DNA of 64,000 bases, from NCBI GenBank assembly GCA_965198005.1, contig CBDAOI010000004.1, forward strand, positions 2,384,549-2,448,548, in the 5' to 3' direction. Origin of the DNA: Spirochaetia bacterium. GTDB lineage: Bacteria > Spirochaetota > Spirochaetia > SZUA-6 > Bin103. The translations under genes were made by a program, and so were the position numbers. A model generated the notes under the pieces. The model saw nothing but the letters and a program-made list of their open reading frames with translations, had not been told where the DNA came from and ran no database searches. Of the stretch, positions 1,823-14,372 are shown piece by piece. Numbering within the stretch: position 1 is the first letter of the stretch; the number at the start of each line of letters is the position of its first letter.

Positions 1823-1991
1823 GGAGGTGCAAATGATACTCAAAGAACCGCACGCGCGCGCGGCGTGAGCCCGGGTGAACCCGGTGAGTCACACGCCGCG
1901 CGCTTCAGGAAGTTGACTCTATCTGGCTGGTCGCCTGCGTTGCGGGCGCGAGAGTAGCCAGGAAGCGGCAATCCGCTTCGCAATACTCTCG
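1823..1991 (+). promoter_or_regulatory. Conserved structured leader, copy 1 (GGAGG + 11-codon uORF, 12-bp hairpin, covarying stems)
   Basis: Homologous to 9249-9415; pairings are conserved through compensatory changes; ends 25 nt before the SBP ATG. Confidence 0.65.
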
Positions 1992-2015: not shown

Positions 2016-3189
2016 ATGAACATTGTAAAAATCAGAATGACCTTCGCGATTGCGTTGGTCCTCGCCCTGACCGCAACCGGCCTCTGGGCCGCCGGCGCAG
2101 ATGAGGAGCCGGCAGCCGCCGCCGACAAGAAGTATGTAACCGACCCCACAACCGGCAAGGTGGTGACTGCGCCAGAGTATGGCGGGACAATAACCTTCGC
2201 CCGAAAAGAAGAGCCGGCGGGTCCTGACGCCGTGCTCAGTGGTTTATGGGTGCTAGACTACGTCGGTGGCGTTCTAGAGAAGCTGGCCATGGCGGACTGG
2301 GCAACGCCCAGAGACAAATTTGACTTCGTAGGTTATGCAGTGCCTCTATTCGCCTTAAAAGGGGCCCTGGCGGAAAGCTGGTCGCAGCCCGACCCACTGA
2401 CGTATGTCGTCAAAGTCCGCCAGGGCGTTCACTGGCACGATAAGGCACCGATGAACGGTCGGGAGCTGACTGCCGATGATATCGTATATAACTATCACCG
2501 AATCTTGGGACTCGGCAGCGGGTTCACCGAACCTAGCGAATTTGCCACCACTAGCTGGGCCGGTGTGCAAGTGGAATCGATAACGGCCACCGACAAATGG
2601 ACGGTTGTTTTTAAGCTGAAGGAGCTAAACCTCCGTGCGCTGGCTGCTATCCTCGACGGCCACATCGTCTGGATATACCCCCCCGAGGTAATCAAGGAAC
2701 ACGGGGACGTTACGGATTGGAGGAACCTGGTCGGCACCGGACCCTTTATGCTGACTGACTGGACCGAGGGCAGCTCTGTCACCTGGGACAAGAACCCTGA
2801 CTACTGGGGCTACGACGAAAAATACCCGGAGAACCGCCTGCCCTATGTCGACCAATTAAGGGCTCTGCTTATGCCCGAGGTGGCAACAATGTTGGCGGCA
2901 CTGCGCACAGGTAGGGTTGATCGTGGATACGAATTAAGGAGTCTCGACCAGGTAGAGAGCCTCCAGCGCACTAACCCCGAAATCGTGATATGGCCATTTT
3001 CCAATCGGTCGGATAATGCTTTCGGTATGAACGTTCAGTTGCCGCCCTTTGACGACATCAGGGTGCGCAAGGCACTGCAGATGGCAATAAACCTCGAGGA
3101 AATTAACAATGCCTTCTACAAGGGTTATGCAGATGTGACACCCCCGCCTCTGGGTTGATAGTGAGCTGAAGGAGGCAATGGGTCGATAG
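2016..3189 (+). pseudogene. ABC transporter substrate-binding protein family 5 (DppA/OppA-like) with ~0.6 kb internal deletion
   Basis: LAESWSQPD, GTGPF, DIRVRKAL motifs. After ...ADVTP (~3140) the sequence jumps, out of frame, to RLWVDSELKEAMGR*, equivalent to the C-terminus of the paralogue at 9439. Confidence 0.85.
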
Positions 3190-3285: not shown

Positions 3286-4088
3286 GTGAGAGCCTATATT
3301 ATCAGGCGATTATTGCTCATCATCCCCACCATGTTCATATTGAGCATCCTGGTCTTTCTCTCGGTCCGCTTCATCCCCGGAGATGTAGTAGACGTAATGA
3401 TGGGTAGGATGGAATACCAAACGATGGGGGCGCAACCATTGAGCTTGGTTTGATGGCAATCCTCATCGGGCTGGTGATCGCGTTGCCGGTCGGCATCTAC
3501 TCGGCGATTCGCCAGGATACCGTCGCCGACTTCCTGGGGCGCTCGGTCGCCATCGTCGGCCTGGCCACGCCGAACTTCTGGCTCGGCATAATGGTCATGA
3601 TCTACCCAGCCATCTGGTGGGGCTGGGCGCCGCCGCTGGAGCTGGTTTCTTTCACAGAGGACCCGCTGGGGAATCTGGCGGTGTTCGTCATTCCCAGCCT
3701 GATTCTGGGAACGGCCGCTGCTGCCGCCACCATGCGGATGACGCGCGCCATGATGCTGGAGGTGCTCCGGCAGGATTTTATCAGGACGGCCTGGGCGAAG
3801 GGCTTGCGGGAGCGGGCCGTGGTGATCCGACACGCGGTCAAGAATGCCCTGATCCCGGTGGTGTCCCTGATCGGCCTGCAGTTGCCGATTCTGGTGGGGG
3901 GCGCCGTGATCATGGAGAACATCTTCAACCTGCCGGGCCTCGGCCGCCTCCTGCTGAATGCCCTCAATGAGAGAGATTACCCGATGGTCTCCGGCATCAA
4001 CCTGTTCTTCGCCACCGGGGTGGTGCTGATCAACCTGCTCATCGACTTGGTCTACGCCGTCTTGGACCCCAGGGTCCGCTATGACTGA
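3286..4088 (+). pseudogene. DppB/OppB-like permease with internal deletion/frameshift near 3435
   Basis: VRAYIIRRLLL start; 3' part ...DFIRTAWAKGL...LDPRVRYD. Lacks the periplasmic segment present in 11346..12305. Confidence 0.85.
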
Positions 4089-5771: not shown

Positions 5772-5955
5772 CGGGCAAGGCAGCCTACCGGGAGCAACCT
5801 TGAGCCCCCCGCGCCGTAGAGCGCCCGGGGGGGACGTGTGCCCCGGTAGGAGTGCCGCGATGGATACCCAGTGAGGAGCTTCCCACCGGGCGGGGCCCGG
5901 CGTGGTCATGTAAGAAACTGTTGTTTCTTAGGAGTAGTGCCAGGTGGGAAGGTGC
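5772..5955 (+). ncRNA. Predicted IS110 bridge RNA
   Basis: Two stem-loops with large internal loops: CCTACCGGG(5784)/CCCGGTAGG(5850), and CTTCCCACC(5879)/GGTGGGAAG(5951) with inner TAAGAAAC/GTTTCTTA. Position upstream of an IS110 ORF fits. Confidence 0.6.
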
Positions 5956-6040
5956 CAGGAGCACCGGAGCACCGGAGCACCAGTACAGGGGTGGAACGAC
6001 ATCGTGGCAGCCGAGCTCCACAATCTCTGGAGGTGACAGG

Positions 6041-6730
6041 ATGTCAACCGAACAGACCGAACAGACCGAACAGTGGTTCGTGGGTATCGATTGGGCGACC
6101 CAGCAACATCAGATTTGTGTGCTTGAGGATGACGGCGCGGTGGTCGCGGAACGGCAGGTGGCCCATAGCGGCGCCGGCATCGCCGACTTGTGCGCATGGT
6201 TGCACGAGCTATCCGGCGGGCACCCGGAGCGCGTGCACGCGGGGATCGAGGTGCCGCATGGCGCGGTGGTCGAGATGCTGCTGGAGCGGGAGGTGCAGGT
6301 GTACGCGATCAATCCCAAGCAGCTGGATCGATTTCGTGACCGGTTTACGGTGGCCGGCGCCAAGGATGACCGGCGCGACGCGCGGGTGTTGGCAGACTCG
6401 CTGCGCACCGACCGACGCAGCTTTCGTCAGTTGCAGGTGCAGGCACCGCCGGTGATCGAGTTGCGGGAATGGTCGCGCCTGACTGCCGAGTTGCAGGAGG
6501 AACGCAACGGGCTGATCAATCGCATGCGCGAGCAACTGCGCCGCTACTACCCGCAGCTGATCGAGCTGGGCGGTGACCTCGGCGCGGGCTGGGTTCTGGA
6601 GTTGTGGGAGAAGGCTTCGACGCCGGCGGAGGCAGCGCGGGTCCGGAAGGCGTCGGTCGCGGCCATCCTGAAGCGCAACCGCATCCGGCGCCATGATGCT
6701 GTCAGTGTGCTGCGCATCCTGCGGCTACCG
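6041..6730 (+). pseudogene. IS110 transposase/recombinase, N-terminal DEDD (RuvC-like) and coiled-coil part only
   Basis: FVGIDWA, GIEVP, INPKQ, KDDRRDA motifs; GGAGG RBS; fused to a dppC fragment after ...LRLPA. Confidence 0.9.
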
Positions 6731-7164
6731 GCGGCATCGGCGGCTCGCGCATCGCGCGCAGTGCCGTCATCGGCATCAGGGAGAACATGTATCTGCAGGC
6801 GGCGGAGGCGTTTGGCGCGAGCGCGACCAGGACCATCTTCCGTCACGTACTGCCCAACATCATGGCGCCCATGATCATCACCTTCACCGTGACCATTGGC
6901 GGCGTCATCATGGCCGAGGCTTCGCTGAGCTTCCTCGGTTTCGGCCTTCCCCCGAATGTCGCCACCTGGGGAGGCATGCTCAGCAACGACGGGCGCCGCT
7001 TCATGGAGTTGGCGCCATGGCTGGCCATCTGGCCGGGCCTCTCCCTGACCATCGTGGTTTACAGTCTGAATATGCTCGGTGATGCGCTGCGAGACCTGCT
7101 CGATCCCCGGCTGAAGGGCGGTGTGGGTCGTCTGGGTGCCAATAGTCGCGCCAAGTCGGGCTAG
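6729..7164 (+). pseudogene. DppC/OppC-like permease, 3' half only
   Basis: GGSRIARSAVIGIRENMYLQAAEAFG...GDALRDLLDPRL. Confidence 0.85.
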
Positions 7165-7932: not shown

Positions 7933-8739
7933 ATGGCCAGTTCGCTGCTCGCTCCCGCCAAGGTCCACTACCCCTCATCCGACGGCCGGCCGATGGCGGA
8001 AAGCGACTTTCAGCGCACGCCGCTGACCTACGCCGTCGACCGGCTGCGATACCACTTTCGCAACCGCCGGGACGTGTACGTCTCCGGCAACCTGTTGCTC
8101 TACTACCAGGAGGGGAATCCGCGGGCGGTAGTGGCGCCCGACGTGTTCGTGGTGCGAGGCGTGGCCAACGCCGACCGCTCCAGCTATCGGCTGTGGGAGG
8201 AGCGCAAGGTGCCTGACTTCGTGCTGGAGATTACCTCGCGCACGACGCACCGCGAGGACCAGGGACGCAAGCGCGAGTTGTACCGTGCGCTTGGGGTGCG
8301 GGAGTACTGGCAGTACGACCCGACGGGCGACTATCTGGAGCCTCCGCTGCAGGGATTGGAGTTGCGCGCGGGGGAGTACCGGCGGCTGCCGGGGCGGGAG
8401 TTGGCGGACGGCACGCTGGCGCTGGCGAGCGGCGTGCTGGGGCTGGAGTTGCGGCTGACGGAGCGGGGGCTGCGGTTCCACGATCCGGACACCGGGCAGG
8501 ACCTGCCGAACCTTGGGGAGACCGACGAGGCGCGGGAGCGCGAGCGGCAGGCGCGGGAGCGCGAGCAGCAGGCGCGGGAGCGCGAGCAGCAGGCGCGGCA
8601 AGCGGCGGAGACGCGCCTCGCGCAGGAAGCGGCAGCCCGCGCAGCCGCGGAAGCACGGGTAGCGGAGCTGGAGGCGGTGTTGCGCCGGGAGCGCGGTAGC
8701 GATTCCGGTCAGGACGGCAATCCAGCGGCACCTCGGTAG
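7933..8739 (+). CDS. Uma2 (DUF820) family endonuclease with coiled-coil tail
   Basis: YPSSDGRPMAES, VAPDVFVV, PDFVLEITS, GVREYWQYDP; GGAGG RBS. Confidence 0.92.
   Translation: MASSLLAPAKVHYPSSDGRPMAESDFQRTPLTYAVDRLRYHFRNRRDVYVSGNLLLYYQEGNPRAVVAPDVFVVRGVANADRSSYRLWEERKVPDFVLEITSRTTHREDQGRKRELYRALGVREYWQYDPTGDYLEPPLQGLELRAGEYRRLPGRELADGTLALASGVLGLELRLTERGLRFHDPDTGQDLPNLGETDEARERERQAREREQQAREREQQARQAAETRLAQEAAARAAAEARVAELEAVLRRERGSDSGQDGNPAAPR
8530..8598 (+). repeat. 21-bp tandem repeat x3 (AREREQQ) in the Uma2 tail
   Basis: GCGCGGGAGCGCGAGC(A/G)GCAG repeated. Confidence 0.85.
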
Positions 8740-8773
8740 GTGGTAGGGTGTGGTCGGGTAAGCACCGTTCTGG

Positions 8774-8964
8774 TTGACCCGTGTCACGGGTCCGTGCTAC
8801 GGTCACACTGTAGAGCCATGAGCTGTCAGATTTCTTCGACTTCTTCGACGCAGGTGATTGCCCCGAGTCGCGGGTCCGTGCTACAGTCGCACGGTAGAGC
8901 CATGGACGGTCCCTGTAGCGCCCACAACAAGTTAGCGCTTATGCCTGTACCCCCCCCCCCCCCC
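8774..8964 (+). repeat. Second tandem promoter-like repeat array with poly-C tract
   Basis: TTGACC-18-TACGGT (8774) and TTGCCC-18-TACAGT (8858); ~48-bp similar units; TTCTTCGAC x2 between them; C15 at 8950-8964. Confidence 0.6.
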
Positions 8965-9248
8965 GACTTTTCGAACCGAGAAACAACTAACCGCTCCGGC
9001 TGATCGCCCTGTACGCGACCGCGCGCGCGCCGTCGCCTTCACCACCGCCGTAGCTATCGGTGGCGCCGGCTCGGTCCATCGCCGAACCGGCATGCGGGCC
9101 GCTCGCGCCGTTCCCAGCGGCCGCAACGGTCCCGGATCCCCGCCCGCGACCGACTGCCAGCAAAACCCACCGCCGACGTTGCCGGTCATTCGGACTCGCT
9201 GCTTCGCCGACTACGACCCCGCGTGGCGTTGTGACGTGAGGAAGAAGA

Positions 9249-9415
9249 GGAGGTGAAGATGATACTGAAAGAACCGCACCCGCGCGCGGCGTGAGCCCGG
9301 GTGAATCCGTTGAGTCACACGCCGCGCGCTTTTAGTGAATTTGACTCAGACTGGCCGTCCGCGTTGCGGGCGTGAGAGTAGCCAGGGAGCGGCAAGTCGC
9401 TCCGCAATACTCTCA
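9249..9415 (+). promoter_or_regulatory. Conserved structured leader, copy 2
   Basis: GGAGG + MILKEPHPRAA* (9259-9294), hairpin followed by TTTT, covarying stems; homologous to 1823-1991. Confidence 0.65.
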
Positions 9416-9438
9416 AAATCCAAGCAAGGATACTAACG

Positions 9439-11247
9439 ATGACGAAAATCCTATTTCGAATGACCTTCGCGATTGCGTTGGTCCTGGTCATGGCCGCAAC
9501 CGGCCTGTGGGCCGGCGGCGCAGAAGAGGCACCGGCAGCCGCTGCCGACAAGGAGATGGTGACCGATCCCACCACCGGAAAGGTGGTGGTGGCACCACGG
9601 TACGGCGGGACAATAACCTACGCCCTATCAACAGACCTTCCGGGACCTGACACCGTGCTCACTGGTGGAGCGGCGGCTCACTCCGCCGGTCCCGTTGTAG
9701 AGAAGCTGGGCGCCGCGGACTGGGCAGCTCCCAGGGACAAGTTTTCCTTCAACATCTATGAACTCAATATTCCTGCTAACACGAAAGGGGTGCTGGCGGA
9801 AAGCTGGTCGCAACCCGACCCACTGACGTATATCATCAAAGTCCGCCAGGGCGTCCATTGGCATGATAAGGCACCGATGAACGGCCGGGAGCTGACTGCC
9901 CAGGATGTCGAGTACAACTTTCACCGTATGGTGGGTATAGGTAGCGGTTTCACCGAAAAAAGCCCTATGGCTTATAGCTTCCAAGCTGGGGAATTCGAAT
10001 CGATAACGGCCACCGACCAGTCGACGGTTGTTTTTAAGATGAACAAGCCCCGCCTCAGTGCGCTGGCTTCTATCCTCGACGACTGGTCTGCCTGGATATA
10101 TCCCCCCGAGGTGATCAAGGAACACGGGGATGTTTCGGATTGGAGAAACCTGGTCGGAACCGGACCCATGATGATGACTGACTGGACCAAAGGCAGCTCT
10201 CGCACCTATGAGAGGAATCCTGACTACTGGGGATACGACGAGAAATACCCGGAGAACCGTCTGCCCTATATTGACCGGCTGAGGGGCCTGGTTATGCCCG
10301 AAGTCGCGACACGCACGGCTGCACTGCGCACGGGTCAGGTTGATTATGTAGGTGCGCTCGGCCTAACTTCATTGAGGAATCTCGACCAGGTAGAGAGCCT
10401 CCAGCGCACCAACCCCGAAATCGTGATATCGTCGTATACTTTTCGGAATGATGGTGCTGTTAGCTTGAACGTTCAGATAGAGTCCTTTGACGACATCAGA
10501 GTGCGCAAGGCCATGCAGATGGCAATAAACATCGAAGAAATTAACAATTCCTACTTTGGAGGTTTGGGAGATACGACACCTCAGGGGAAGATAAGCAGGT
10601 CTTATGCAGGGGTTGTCACCCAATTCGAAGATTGGCCCGAAGATGTCAAGAAGGTCTTTGATTACGACCCGGAAGGTGCCGAAGCGTTGCTTGATGAGGC
10701 CGGATATCCTCGCGGCGCCGACGGTATCAGATTCAAGACCAAGTTCTTGCATCTCGAGCGGTACGATTTGAACTATACACAATTGATCACTTCATACTGG
10801 AACGAGATTGGCATCGATGTAGTAGACATTGAAGTATTGCCATTTGCTGGCTTTGCCGCGAAAAGAACTGACAAGGATCACGAAATGATCAGTAGCGAGT
10901 TGGCCAACTATGGGGATCCCATAAGCTACATGAGGTCCTATTCGAATCACCCGAGCAACCCATATGGGGCGGATTCCAATGTCAACGACCCTGTTTATGA
11001 CGCCATGCTTGAGGCTGCCGAAGCCGCTACCACTATTGAGGAGCAGCACAGGTTAGTTCGAGAGTTGAATCAATATGGGATTGAGAAGTTCTGGATGATA
11101 TGGACTCCTAATGGTCCACAATTCAACGCGATCAAACCGTGGATCATGGGTTTCAACAACGAAAACTGGATGGGTAACGGTCAAGTCCTGGTAGTGTTCA
11201 CCCGCCTGTGGATTGACCAGGATCTGAAGACGGAAATGGGCTATTAG
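9439..11247 (+). CDS. ABC transporter substrate-binding protein family 5 (DppA/OppA-like), intact
   Basis: 602 aa; signal region, LAESW, GTGP, DIRVRKAM, YDPEGAEALLDEAGY. Confidence 0.93.
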   Translation: MTKILFRMTFAIALVLVMAATGLWAGGAEEAPAAAADKEMVTDPTTGKVVVAPRYGGTITYALSTDLPGPDTVLTGGAAAHSAGPVVEKLGAADWAAPRDKFSFNIYELNIPANTKGVLAESWSQPDPLTYIIKVRQGVHWHDKAPMNGRELTAQDVEYNFHRMVGIGSGFTEKSPMAYSFQAGEFESITATDQSTVVFKMNKPRLSALASILDDWSAWIYPPEVIKEHGDVSDWRNLVGTGPMMMTDWTKGSSRTYERNPDYWGYDEKYPENRLPYIDRLRGLVMPEVATRTAALRTGQVDYVGALGLTSLRNLDQVESLQRTNPEIVISSYTFRNDGAVSLNVQIESFDDIRVRKAMQMAINIEEINNSYFGGLGDTTPQGKISRSYAGVVTQFEDWPEDVKKVFDYDPEGAEALLDEAGYPRGADGIRFKTKFLHLERYDLNYTQLITSYWNEIGIDVVDIEVLPFAGFAAKRTDKDHEMISSELANYGDPISYMRSYSNHPSNPYGADSNVNDPVYDAMLEAAEAATTIEEQHRLVRELNQYGIEKFWMIWTPNGPQFNAIKPWIMGFNNENWMGNGQVLVVFTRLWIDQDLKTEMGY

Positions 11248-11345: not shown

Positions 11346-12305
11346 ATGAAAGCCTATATCATTAGGCGGTTGTTGCTGATCGTGCCGACACTGTTCATTT
11401 TGAGCATCCTGGTCTTTCTCTCGGTACGCTTCATCCCCGGCGATGTCATCGACGTCATGATCGGCAGGATGGCATTCTATGTGCAATTTGATGTAGACCG
11501 TGAAGCTCTCGAGCGTACGCTGGGGTTGGACGTGCCTGTCTACGTGCAGTATGGACGCTGGATAGGAGATATCTTCAGGCACGGTACGCTTGGCGAATCC
11601 CTGTTTACCAGAGAATTGGTGGAACAGGCGATATTAGAGAGACTGCCGGTCACCCTTGAGCTCGGTTTCATGGCAATCTTCATCGGGCTGGTGATCGCGT
11701 TGCCGGTGGGCATCTACTCGGCGATGCGCCAGGATACGGTCGCCGACTTCCTGGGGCGCTCTGTTGCCATCATCGGCCTGGCCACGCCCAACTTCTGGCT
11801 GGGCATCATGGTCATGATCTACCCGGCCATCTGGTGGGGCTGGGCGCCGCCGCTGGAGCTGGTTGCTTTTCCGGAAGACCCGCTGGGCAATCTGGCGGTG
11901 TTCATCATTCCCAGCCTGATTCTGGGCACCGCCTCGGCTGCCGCCACCATGCGGATGACGCGCACCATGATGCTGGAGGTGCTGAGGCAGGACTATATCC
12001 GCACCGCCTGGGCCAAGGGTCTCAAGGAGCGGGCCGTGGTAATCCGACACGCCGTCAAGAACGCACTCATCCCGGTGGTGACCCTGATCGGCCTGCAGTT
12101 GCCGATTCTGGTGGGGGGCGCCGTGATCATGGAGAACATCTTCAACCTGCCGGGCCTCGGCCGTCTCTTGCTGACTGCCCTCAATGAGAGAGACTACCCG
12201 ATGGTCTCCGGCATCAACCTGTTCTTCGCCACTGGGGTAGTGGGGATCAATCTGCTCATCGACCTGGTCTACGCTGTCCTGGACCCCAGGGTCCGCTATG
12301 ACTGA
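11346..12305 (+). CDS. DppB/OppB-like ABC permease
   Basis: 319 aa; YIIRRLL, GLDVPVYVQY, DYIRTAWAKGL, LDPRVRY. Confidence 0.93.
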   Translation: MKAYIIRRLLLIVPTLFILSILVFLSVRFIPGDVIDVMIGRMAFYVQFDVDREALERTLGLDVPVYVQYGRWIGDIFRHGTLGESLFTRELVEQAILERLPVTLELGFMAIFIGLVIALPVGIYSAMRQDTVADFLGRSVAIIGLATPNFWLGIMVMIYPAIWWGWAPPLELVAFPEDPLGNLAVFIIPSLILGTASAAATMRMTRTMMLEVLRQDYIRTAWAKGLKERAVVIRHAVKNALIPVVTLIGLQLPILVGGAVIMENIFNLPGLGRLLLTALNERDYPMVSGINLFFATGVVGINLLIDLVYAVLDPRVRYD

Positions 12306-12355
12306 TTTCTTTCGCAGGCTGGTGAAAGAGAAGCCACTGAGCATCATCGCCGGGG
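12298..12355 (+). pseudogene. DppC-like permease, first ~19 codons only
   Basis: MTDFFRRLVKEKPLSIIAG overlapping the dppB stop, then an abrupt junction. Confidence 0.6.
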
Positions 12356-12633
12356 TCGGCGGCAGCGACATGGAGAATGTCCAGCGACCGGCAGCCAGTG
12401 GTCGGCGTGCGCAAGGTCAGCTCGATCGCACGCTCGTGCAGTGCAACCGGGTCGAGAAAGGGCACGTGATACTGGCCGGCGCGCTTGCGTGTGCGATAGG
12501 TGGACAGGAGACCGTCCACCTCCTGCTCGGTCAGCTCATCGATGAACACCTTGAACCGCAACGCGTTGTACAGTTCCAACTCGAGCACACTCCAGACCGG
12601 CAGCGGCTCCCGCTGGGAGACCACCGCTTCTAC
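12355..12633 (-). pseudogene. PIN-domain toxin fragment
   Basis: LELELYNALR...CRSLDILHVAAA; both ends missing. Confidence 0.7.
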
Positions 12634-12785
12634 CCGTCGGTGGCCAAGGCCGCGGGGGTGAGCCGGCCAGCGAATTGGTCCATCAGGTTGTCGGTTGTCG
12701 ATTCGCGGTGGCATCTTCAGGTCGGGTGCGGTCACCGCAATAATGCGCGGCGCGTGGCGGCGTGCTACCCTTGGAGCAGACGCCG

Positions 12786-14372
12786 ATGGCAGTGCGCTTC
12801 TCCCTCGAACAGTACGGCATCCACGTCGCCCGGATCGTCCGCAACCCGGCGCCGGCGCTGCTCTACGAGTCCGCGTTGCAGAACGAGCACGGCACCGCGA
12901 TCGCGGCCAGCGGCGCGCTGGTGGCGATGAGCGGCGCGCGCACCGGCCGCAGCCCCGCGGACAAGCGGATCGTGGCCGAACCCGCCACCGAGCGCGACAT
13001 CTGGTGGGGCGACGTCAACATCAAGCTGGACGAGCATACGTTCGAGATCAATCGCGAACGCGCCATCGACTATCTGAACACGCGCGAACTGGTGTACGTG
13101 ATCGACGGCTTCGCCGGCTGGGACCCGGCCCACCGGATCAAGGTGCGGGTGGTGTGCGCGCGCGCCTATCACGCGCTGTTCATGCACAACATGCTGATCC
13201 GGCCGCGGCCGCACCAGTTGGCGCGGTTCGGCGAGCCCGATCTGCTGATCATCAACGCCGGCGCGTTTCCCGCCAACCGCTACACCACCGGCATGACCTC
13301 CACCACCTCGATCGACGTCAACCTGGCGCGAGGCGAGCTGGTCATTCTCGGCACCGAATACGCCGGCGAGATGAAGAAGGGGCTGTTCACGATCATGAAC
13401 TACCTGATGCCCAAGGCGGGCATCCTCTCCATGCACTGCTCGGCCACCTGCGACAGCCGCGGCGGGTCGGCGATCCTGTTCGGGCTGTCGGGCACCGGCA
13501 AGACCACTCTCAGCCACGACCCCAAGCGCCGCCTGGTCGGCGACGACGAGCACTGCTGGAGCGACCGCGGCATCTTCAATCTCGAGGGCGGCTGCTACGC
13601 CAAGGTGATCCAGCTCGACGAGGAAGCCGAACCGGTCATCTACCGCGCGCTGCGGTTCGGGGCGGTCCTGGAGAACGTGGCCTACGACCCGCGCACGCGG
13701 GAGGTGGCGTTCGGCGACGGCAGCCTGACCGAGAACACGCGCGGCGCCTATCCGATCGAGTACATCCCGCAGGCCAGCGTGCCGTGCGTGGCGGGCCACC
13801 CGCGCCACGTGGTGTTTCTGGCCTGTGACGCGTTCGGGGTGCTGCCGCCGGTGGCGCGCCTGACCCCGGCGCAGGCGGAGTACCACTTCCTCAGCGGCTA
13901 CAGCGCCAAGGTGGCGGGTACCGAGGTGGGGGTCACCGAGCCGCAGGCCACCTTCTCCCCCTGCTTCGGCGGCCCGTTCCTGGTCTGGCATCCCACCGTG
14001 TACAGCCGCCTGCTGAGCGACCGGCTGCGCCGCCACGGCAGCCAGGCGTGGCTGGTCAACACCGGCTGGGCCGGCGGCCCCGCAGGCCGCACCGACCGGA
14101 TTCCGCTGGCCTGGACGCGGGCCATCCTGGACGCGATCTACGCCGGGTCCCTGACCGGCGTGGCGGCCGAACGCGACCCGGTCTTCGGGCTGGACGTGCC
14201 CCGCGCCTGTCCCGGCGTGCCGGCGCGCGTACTGCTGCCGCGCGCGGCGTGGAGCAACCCGGCGGCGTACGACACCGCCGCGGCGCGGTTGGCGCGGCTG
14301 TTCCGGGACAATTTCACGCGCTACGCGGCGGCCGGCACGGGGCACGCGGCGACCGCGGCGGCGCGCGCCTGA
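12786..14372 (+). CDS. pckA: Phosphoenolpyruvate carboxykinase (ATP)
   Basis: TGRSP, YAGEMKK, FGLSGTGKTTLS, GDDEHCW, NLEGGCYAK, TENTRGAYP; GGAG RBS before ATG 12786. Confidence 0.97.
   Translation: MAVRFSLEQYGIHVARIVRNPAPALLYESALQNEHGTAIAASGALVAMSGARTGRSPADKRIVAEPATERDIWWGDVNIKLDEHTFEINRERAIDYLNTRELVYVIDGFAGWDPAHRIKVRVVCARAYHALFMHNMLIRPRPHQLARFGEPDLLIINAGAFPANRYTTGMTSTTSIDVNLARGELVILGTEYAGEMKKGLFTIMNYLMPKAGILSMHCSATCDSRGGSAILFGLSGTGKTTLSHDPKRRLVGDDEHCWSDRGIFNLEGGCYAKVIQLDEEAEPVIYRALRFGAVLENVAYDPRTREVAFGDGSLTENTRGAYPIEYIPQASVPCVAGHPRHVVFLACDAFGVLPPVARLTPAQAEYHFLSGYSAKVAGTEVGVTEPQATFSPCFGGPFLVWHPTVYSRLLSDRLRRHGSQAWLVNTGWAGGPAGRTDRIPLAWTRAILDAIYAGSLTGVAAERDPVFGLDVPRACPGVPARVLLPRAAWSNPAAYDTAAARLARLFRDNFTRYAAAGTGHAATAAARA

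Follow-up and report, generated by a model that had tools for sequence, protein, structure and literature searches.

Two genes for family-5 SBPs, which are periplasmic binding proteins, lie within a 64,000-nucleotide stretch of spirochaete DNA (hereafter, the window), and each of them is preceded by a short element with the same predicted base pairing. Is this element a regulatory RNA, how far does it extend, and what might it respond to? The explanation that we favor, which we put slightly below an even chance, is that the element is the 3' domain of a cis-acting 5' leader that heads ABC-importer operons, is specific to one lineage, and is coupled to a mini-ORF.

The flagged motif and the leader around it

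The initial annotation proposed that positions 1923-1991 (copy A) and 9351-9415 (copy B), both on the plus strand, share their pairings while their letters differ. Both stretches read as claimed. Each begins with CTGGC (1923-1927 and 9351-9355), followed by a hairpin, H2, which is CGCCTGC-GTT-GCGGGCG in copy A (1932-1948) and CGTCCGC-GTT-GCGGGCG in copy B (9356-9372). The outer stem is (C)GAGAGTA/TACTCTC(G) in copy A (1949-1956 with 1984-1991) and (T)GAGAGTA/TACTCTC(A) in copy B (9373-9380 with 9408-9415). Helix H3 is the part of this stem at 1950-1956 with 1984-1990 (copy A, plus strand) or 9374-9380 with 9408-9414 (copy B, plus strand). Within the stem are GCCAG (1957-1961 and 9381-9385), the inner hairpin H4 (1962-1979 and 9386-9403), and GCAA (9404-9407 in copy B); the GCCAG and GCAA loops are identical in the two copies. 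RNAfold returned the claimed fold, with a 7-bp hairpin, the outer stem around GCCAG, the second hairpin, and GCAA, at z = -3.1 for copy A and -3.5 for copy B (200 shuffles each).

The motif ends 25 nt before the SBP start codon in copy A (ATG at 2016) and 24 nt before it in copy B (ATG at 9439). The genes downstream of both copies are family-5 SBP genes, as proposed (Pfam assigns them to SBP_bac_5), and the structured element is their 5' leader. In copy B, the Shine-Dalgarno sequence (SD; AAGGA) and the ATG lie at 9426..9441 on the plus strand, the gene (9439..11247, plus strand) encodes 602 amino acids (PF00496, E = 1.6e-64), and a permease gene follows (11346-12305, PF00528). After this first permease is a 210-amino-acid ORF (12298-12930) that has no match in Pfam and that overlaps the start of a PEP carboxykinase gene (12762-14372); the second permease of this operon may have been lost or truncated. 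The SBP gene of copy A (2016..3158, plus strand) is truncated to 380 amino acids, as compared to about 600, and its Pfam match stops at position 246 of the 368 in the profile. It is followed by ORFs for an IS110-family transposase (5852-6874) and a Uma2-family protein (7933-8739), and the copy A operon looks disrupted. In many paralogues, as at 2001-2018 of the window, the SBP start codon is part of a small hairpin, CAUACG-GAGAAA-CGUAUG, whose loop holds the SD, and variants of this hairpin (CAUAGG/CCUAUG and UAUGG/CCAUG) keep the pairing.

The proposed extent was right for the 3' domain and too short for the whole: the conserved block starts about 95 nt further upstream, at another SD and a mini-ORF. 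When the two upstream regions of the window are aligned, their similarity runs from this SD into the signal-peptide codons of the SBP, and the motif is thus the 3' domain of a leader of about 190 nt. In copy A, the SD (GGAGG) is at 1823..1827 and the mini-ORF, which encodes MILKEPHARAA-stop, is at 1833..1868 (both plus strand). In copy B, the SD (GAGGAGGT) is at 9247..9254, where the conservation across copies starts, and the mini-ORF (11 codons, MILKEPHPRAA-stop) is at 9259..9294 (both plus strand). Overlapping the end of the mini-ORF is another hairpin, H1, at 1856..1903 in copy A (plus strand, dG -36.2 kcal/mol, z = -5.2) and at 9282..9329 in copy B (plus strand, dG -30 kcal/mol, z = -3.7). 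H1 is a 12-bp GC stem whose 5' arm holds codons 8-11 of the mini-ORF and its TGA stop.

The letters after H1 vary by copy (TTC, TTTT, or GTC), and no intrinsic terminator was called on the plus strand in either leader of the window. With no U tract after H1 and no terminator called on that strand, we rejected a classical attenuator with a terminator and an antiterminator. We also found no sigma-70 promoter on the plus strand inside the leader.

Leader copies in the window's genome

The initial annotation had just two copies at hand. Searching the window's own genome (4.89 Mb in 4 contigs, 90% complete, 3.27% contamination) with blastn at E up to 1e-3 gave 87 HSPs, 73 of them near-full. Of these 73 leaders, which we term type 1, 69 are distinct from SD to ATG, and we dropped four identical duplicates. 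The identical pairs, all of which span contigs (C2:13087 = C4:693011, C1:4928 = C4:1735505, C2:7716 = C3:799094, and C3:894908 = C4:2001947), are either very recent duplications or redundancy in the assembly. At C4:381125-381444, a full type-1 leader is followed by a partial second pseudoknot domain, which is a tandem duplication of the 3' domain in front of one SBP.

Nearly all of the near-full leaders (71 of 73) lie directly 5' of an SBP-like ORF, and the proteins encoded there are 41-67% identical to the window's SBP. With tblastn, we identified 203 SBP-like loci in the genome, and 159 of these extend over more than 400 residues. A type-1 leader is present at 76 of these 159 full-length loci. 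A permease-like gene lies on the same strand within 1.5 kb downstream at 144 of the 159, and we therefore consider the leader to head ABC-importer operons. The leader is more conserved than the gene it precedes: across 120 sampled pairs among 56 genes, and considering aligned columns only, the median nucleotide identity was 0.895 in the leader, 0.846 in the first 120 nt of the coding sequence, and 0.759 in the remainder. The leader was more similar than the mature coding sequence in all 120 pairs.

The mini-ORF varies as a coding sequence would. In all 69 distinct copies, 5-9 nt separate the SD from the start codon, which is ATG in 66, CTG in two, and TTG in one. Codons 2-6 encode ILKEP, and 47 of the 59 departures from the consensus are synonymous (CTC/CTG 47/21, GAA/GAG 53/14, all four CCN codons, and AAG twice). 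Codon 7, on the other hand, varies freely (CAC 50, TAG 12, TAC 5, TGG 1, GAG 1). Since it is TAG in 12 copies, the mini-ORF stops at either codon 7 or codon 12, and both stops would put the terminating ribosome onto the 5' arm of H1. In related genomes, 41 of 53 distinct copies could be parsed and have the same codon pattern; the 12 unparsed copies include synonymous ATT/TTG variants, GTG starts, and two copies with no start. A divergent copy in a relative encodes MTRKDPRAA, which keeps K-D-P. Because most of this variation is synonymous, the mini-ORF is probably translated and under constraint at the level of the peptide. As in tnaC, then, there is a conserved short peptide with selection on its amino acids, and the xPKTGYD-stop peptides of type 2 (described below) are also conserved. 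MILKEPHARAA has no repeated regulatory codon, and we rejected a classical amino-acid attenuator of the trp/his type.

Does the structure show compensatory change? The changes that were noted in the outer and inner stems are real in the two copies of the window, and two of the three pairs that were put forward are weak across the 69 distinct copies. The outer-stem pair is UG in 23 copies, CG in 19, UA in seven, and unpaired in 16, while the second inner-stem pair is GC in 42, GU in five, AU in one, and unpaired in 20. Across the whole type-1 structure, 94.5% of 2802 cells (a base pair in one copy) are paired in the 69 copies, as compared to 24-54% for controls in which the arms are slid. Changes on both sides were seen for seven pairs (14 cells), versus 4.1 pairs and 6.2 cells in shuffles; eight of 500 shuffles were as high for pairs and none of 500 for cells. 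Relatives gave nine pairs and 18 cells with double-sided changes, versus 3.4 and 5.5 in shuffles (0/500), for 53 distinct copies that were aligned by a covariance model, so that this alignment leans towards the structure. Overall, type-1 variation is low and the covariation support is therefore modest, and because the copies are kin, the shuffle controls overstate its significance.

Insertions and deletions respect the helices. As counted from the alignment, the whole H2 hairpin is duplicated in tandem in about 21 of the 69 copies and the inner part of H1 is missing in 10 of 69. H1 is 98.4% paired (by cells) in the 69 copies. Three copies (C4:389212, C4:360353, and C4:428651) share a 22-nt insertion in the apical loop of H1 (alignment columns 65-86). 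From a MAFFT alignment of the 69 copies, RNAalifold recovered H1 and H2 alone; insertions break the columns of the 3' domain in this alignment, so we named the structure by hand.

A second feature of H1 is that its loop holds UGAGUCA (9311-9317 in copy B, plus strand), whose candidate partner in an alternative helix is UGACUCA (9342..9348, plus strand). Between H1 and UGACUCA is a variable linker, and the linkers vary freely across copies. When the mini-ORF region was blocked during folding, as a ribosome would block it, a UGAGUCA/UGACUCA hairpin replaced H1 in all six of the folds that were printed (six of the 73 copies), and this hairpin adjoins the CUGGC strand of the pseudoknot described below. 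The predicted pseudoknot domain is the same with or without the block, and the SD of the SBP gene is not clearly sequestered in either folding state. The heptamers are 96-99% paired (by cells) and nearly invariant, and as many as 138 of 500 shuffles reached the observed percentage; the result in relatives was marginal. Since the two strands hardly vary, covariation gives no test of this helix, and we propose it as a hypothetical alternative fold from the modeled structures. Both heptamers contain GANTC, and we rejected a methylation switch at these sites, as GANTC is not depleted from the genome (observed/expected of 0.96). Relative to the mononucleotide expectation, GAGTC and GACTC are under-represented in the genome (0.63 and 0.64) and GATC is over-represented (2.18).

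Sister leaders and the pseudoknot

About 44 further SBP operons in the genome carry leaders of two other types (types 2 and 3) with the same topology as type 1. These have, in order, an SD and a tiny ORF, a hairpin, GUCGCCCUCGC, a variable hairpin, CGAGAGUA, GCGAGGG(G)CCGGCAGUG, UACUCUCG, and the ribosome-binding site of the SBP gene. The third loop differs by type: it contains hairpin H4 in type 1 and CCGGCAGUG in types 2 and 3. A covariance model built from 17 type-2/3 leaders alone gave 55 genomic matches at E up to 1e-3, some of which are weak matches to type-1 leaders. With filters off, its top two matches in the window were 1877-2015 (E = 1.3e-4) and 9320-9439 (E = 1.1e-3). In the model's alignments, H2, H3, and GCCAGG...CGGCA of type 1 correspond to H2, H3, and GGCGAGGG...CGGCA of the sister types.

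Covariation is clearer in these sister types. For 30 distinct leaders, we found nine pairs and 25 cells with double-sided changes, versus 4.1 and 8.5 in shuffles (0/500). H3 accounts for much of the signal, as seven of its nine pairs show compensatory changes (for example, AU in 15 with GC in nine, or UA in 23 with CG in five). Among 24 distinct type-2/3 leaders from six related genomes, there were seven such pairs and 14 cells, versus 2.5 and 3.1 (0/500).

The initial annotation had suggested that GCCAG could pair with the upstream CTGGC as a pseudoknot. In type 1, CUGGC/GCCAG is 99.1% paired and nearly invariant, and in relatives one of its pairs is double-changed in two sequences. The sister types support the idea with a helix of different sequence at the same position: CCCUCGC/GCGAGGG sits at the same topological place, with the 5' strand before H2 and the 3' strand directly after the 5' arm of H3. 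It was fully paired, in register, in 23 of 25 sequences, four of which have the double changes CCUUCGC/GCGAAGG. Because this helix interleaves with H3 and has compensatory changes, we take the domain to be an H-type pseudoknot; its strands come in the order A5', B5', A3', B3'. The domain ends 6-25 nt 5' of the ribosome-binding site of the SBP gene.

Using our own pattern, we searched the 44 type-2/3 leaders for tiny ORFs behind an SD, and 30 of the leaders have one, with a length of 1-8 codons. These ORFs encode xPKTGYD (including MKHPTGYD; 11 leaders), MKSPYD (three), MQN, MRN, or MEN (five, plus one MCRMQN), MKL (three), MKP (two), or MKLC (one), and four are a bare start and stop. The pattern did not find a tiny ORF in the other 14 leaders. 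Given these 14 and the four with start and stop only, the leaders cannot in general require a particular peptide. In the types with the shortest ORFs, the stop is 19-29 nt 5' of the inner pseudoknot strand, which is near the leading edge of a terminating ribosome.

Leader types also differ between orthologues. The orthologue of the window's SBP in a related genome (G001) is 87% identical over 602 residues; its leader is of type 2, and its signal peptide starts differently. This indicates that leader cassettes have been exchanged among paralogues, and the types appear, from these comparisons, to be interchangeable. Part of the conservation of the leader stems from recombination. Gene conversion among paralogues or a DNA-level role in recombination, with no function as RNA, could account for this swap, for the mosaic modules further upstream, and for the tandem duplications of H2. 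Such a process would not explain why variation is patterned, with changes at third codon positions of the mini-ORF and compensatory pairs in H3 and the pseudoknot, or why the linkers vary freely, and we consider it very unlikely.

Another alternative is that the leader is a constitutive expression cassette, that is, a 5' stabilizer or an enhancer of translation that keeps SBP output high and does not respond to any signal. Interchangeable types would fit this, and classic mRNA stabilizers are stable 5' structures or a ribosome-bound SD near the 5' end. A plain stabilizer has no need for selection on the amino acids of the mini-ORF, however, and a leader of about 500 nt would be costly. We did not find RNase J (TIGR00649) in this genome, which is 90% complete, and for this reason we also rejected a block against a 5'-exonuclease. 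We think that a constitutive cassette is improbable.

Range, upstream sequence, and a possible mode of action

Is the leader a known RNA family, and how widely is it found? As the initial annotation had anticipated, Rfam gave no matches at the gathering score across the whole window; at E up to 10, there were two chance-level matches in 8740-9460, both outside the motif. We scanned 185,579 species genomes with an exact pattern and obtained 34 matching stretches, which come from four assemblies that are all labeled "MAG: Spirochaetia bacterium." With blastn, we found the leader in six of the 10 other genomes of the genus, in none of 13 genomes of the sister genus, and in none of 17 from the rest of the order. 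Covariance models added G008 and confirmed G004 and found no leader in three other members of the genus (G002, G009, and G010). The leader was found only in this genus of Spirochaetia MAGs, in seven of 11 genomes. Full-text literature searches (supplements were outside their scope) found no paper with MILKEP, MILKEPHARAA, or PKTGYD, and topical searches found nothing on such mini-ORF/pseudoknot leaders. The abstract and outline of PMC13285730 concern uORFs in Sinorhizobium and do not describe the leader, and none of four terms that we looked for occurs in PMC12522431.

The leader and the expansion of SBPs occur together. There are 134 SBP matches in G001, as compared to eight, eight, one, and none in genomes without the leader (G009, G010, G011, and G018), and in G009 the region 5' of the closest SBP is plain and short and has no match to the models. 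This co-occurrence would be expected if the leader were a common docking site for an RNA-binding protein or small RNA that acts in trans and regulates all of the SBP genes together, as would the sharing of one conserved structured element, with invariant loop letters, by many operons. The analysis turned up no candidate partner, and a docking site leaves the conserved mini-ORF unexplained, so we view this possibility as doubtful.

The pseudoknot domain could instead be a small-molecule aptamer that sets the translation of the SBP. A ligand-sensing riboswitch of this kind would agree with an H-type pseudoknot beside a ribosome-binding site, with near-invariant unpaired letters (GCCAG and GCAA in type 1 and CGGCA in types 2 and 3), and with a fold that is more stable than shuffles. 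The preQ1-II, SAM-II/V, and guanidine-III riboswitches likewise have an H-type pseudoknot within about 25 nt of the start codon and conserved unpaired letters. Unlike in those families, the SD here is outside the pseudoknot, the content of the third loop (H4 versus CCGGCAGUG) varies by type, there is no match in Rfam, and the distribution is narrower than a genus, with the same absence from the sister genus (0/13) and the rest of the order (0/17). It is also hard to motivate one ligand for over 100 importers whose binding proteins have diverged. Given that the loops differ between types and that the family occurs in only part of one genus, a lineage-specific leader fits better than a metabolite riboswitch, and we consider the latter unlikely.

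Returning to the proposed coupling with the mini-ORF, we considered the sequence further upstream. Homology among the copies extends at least 700 nt upstream, and the region 5' of the mini-ORF is built from about five classes of modules, each shared by a subset of the copies. In copy B, a poly-C tract (15 C; 8950..8964, plus strand) lies 309 nt upstream of the mini-ORF, and the sequence between them (8965..9246, plus strand) is C-rich and G-poor, with mosaic modules that are shared with subsets of the paralogues. A C tract of 7-28 nt is present in 44 of the 73 leaders, 194-679 nt upstream of the mini-ORF, and in many cases CA repeats and a ACTTTTTCGAACCGAGAAACAACTAACC block that is conserved come after it. 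In these 44 leaders, the median length between the tract and the mini-ORF is 341 nt, and the sequence there is 41% C and 27% G (medians), as compared to 29% C and 32% G in the core leader. The genome contains a gene for Rho, and this, together with the composition, suggests that Rho may be involved. In G001 (L207, about 3700-3745, minus strand), there is a tandem repeat of about five octamer units (CCGACTAC-like) 5' of the type-2 leader that precedes the orthologous SBP gene, where the window's genome has poly-C.

Contigs from four metatranscriptome libraries in three studies cover 8961-9134 and 9222-9488. Two records from X18, 28 (9357-9442) and 29 (9407-9488), bridge the motif and the SBP coding sequence. 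These assembled contigs show presence in RNA libraries and do not give the strand, ends, or level of a transcript, and DNA carry-over is possible. With this limit, contigs that run through the motif into the coding sequence speak against a transcription start downstream of the motif, which the initial annotation had listed as a concern. Contigs with loose ends at 9248 have, at those ends, the upstream module that belongs to other paralogues. Upstream of about 8961, there was no cover in two of the runs and low cover in two more; because these are assembled contigs and homopolymers break assemblies, this drop is no evidence for a transcription start.

We infer that the leader is cis-regulatory and that its input is ribosome occupancy of the mini-ORF. 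The leader would then couple expression of the operon to ribosome traffic. A ribosome that is translating or terminating on the mini-ORF would melt H1; in the sister types with short ORFs, the ribosome would abut the pseudoknot strand directly. The linker would re-pair, and this would alter the formation of the pseudoknot domain beside the ribosome-binding site of the SBP gene. The mini-ORF ribosome would also stand between RNA polymerase and any Rho that had loaded on the C-rich stretch, and we propose that, with the ribosome in that position, both read-through and SBP translation would depend on mini-ORF occupancy. The coupling step is the weakest part of this proposal because the pseudoknot domain is unchanged in the blocked folds.

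Parts of this arrangement have precedents. In the tna operon of E. coli (tnaC with a rut site), a ribosome at the end of the leader ORF is thought to decide Rho termination. The leaders studied here similarly have a short ORF with a conserved peptide, a Rho gene in the same genome, and a C-rich, G-poor stretch. They differ from tna in that the C-rich stretch precedes the mini-ORF and does not follow its stop, and in that the tryptophan logic is absent. The mini-ORF is also followed by a GC hairpin and a pseudoknot, and a genome holds more than 100 copies of the leader. In translational attenuation by the leader peptides of erm, cat, and cmlA, a ribosome on an ORF of 5-19 codons remodels the downstream structure. 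Those leaders share with ours a strong SD and a very short ORF (here, 1-11 codons) upstream of hairpins, but our genes encode importers rather than resistance, and the main SD is not paired with the mini-ORF region.

The C tracts are simple repeats of the hypermutable kind that is found in the control regions of phase-variable genes. Known contingency loci with homopolymer tracts include opc and porA of Neisseria and the fim promoters of Bordetella. The likeness is a highly variable poly-C (7-28 nt) upstream of many paralogous genes; the difference is that these genes encode periplasmic binding proteins. The tract lengths come from assembled contigs. It is conceivable, if improbable, that each of more than 120 importer operons is a contingency locus that is individually switchable via its poly-C or simple-repeat tract, and that a shared mini-ORF/pseudoknot decoder gates read-through and translation. 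If so, a clonal population of a host-associated spirochaete would display a stochastic, re-shufflable repertoire of nutrient-binding proteins. The tracts raise the idea of repertoire switching, in a testable form, outside the usual setting of surface antigens.

If the leader is regulatory, then the organism's largest gene family, with 159 full-length SBP genes in 4.9 Mb, is under the control of a new RNA family. The hundreds of natural variants of the leader, in three interchangeable types, could be used to dissect the interplay of a mini-ORF and a pseudoknot. The source is an uncultured marine spirochaete in which the leader fronts well over a hundred nutrient-uptake operons, and the leader would reveal the means by which a host-associated bacterium keeps control of a very large set of nutrient importers.
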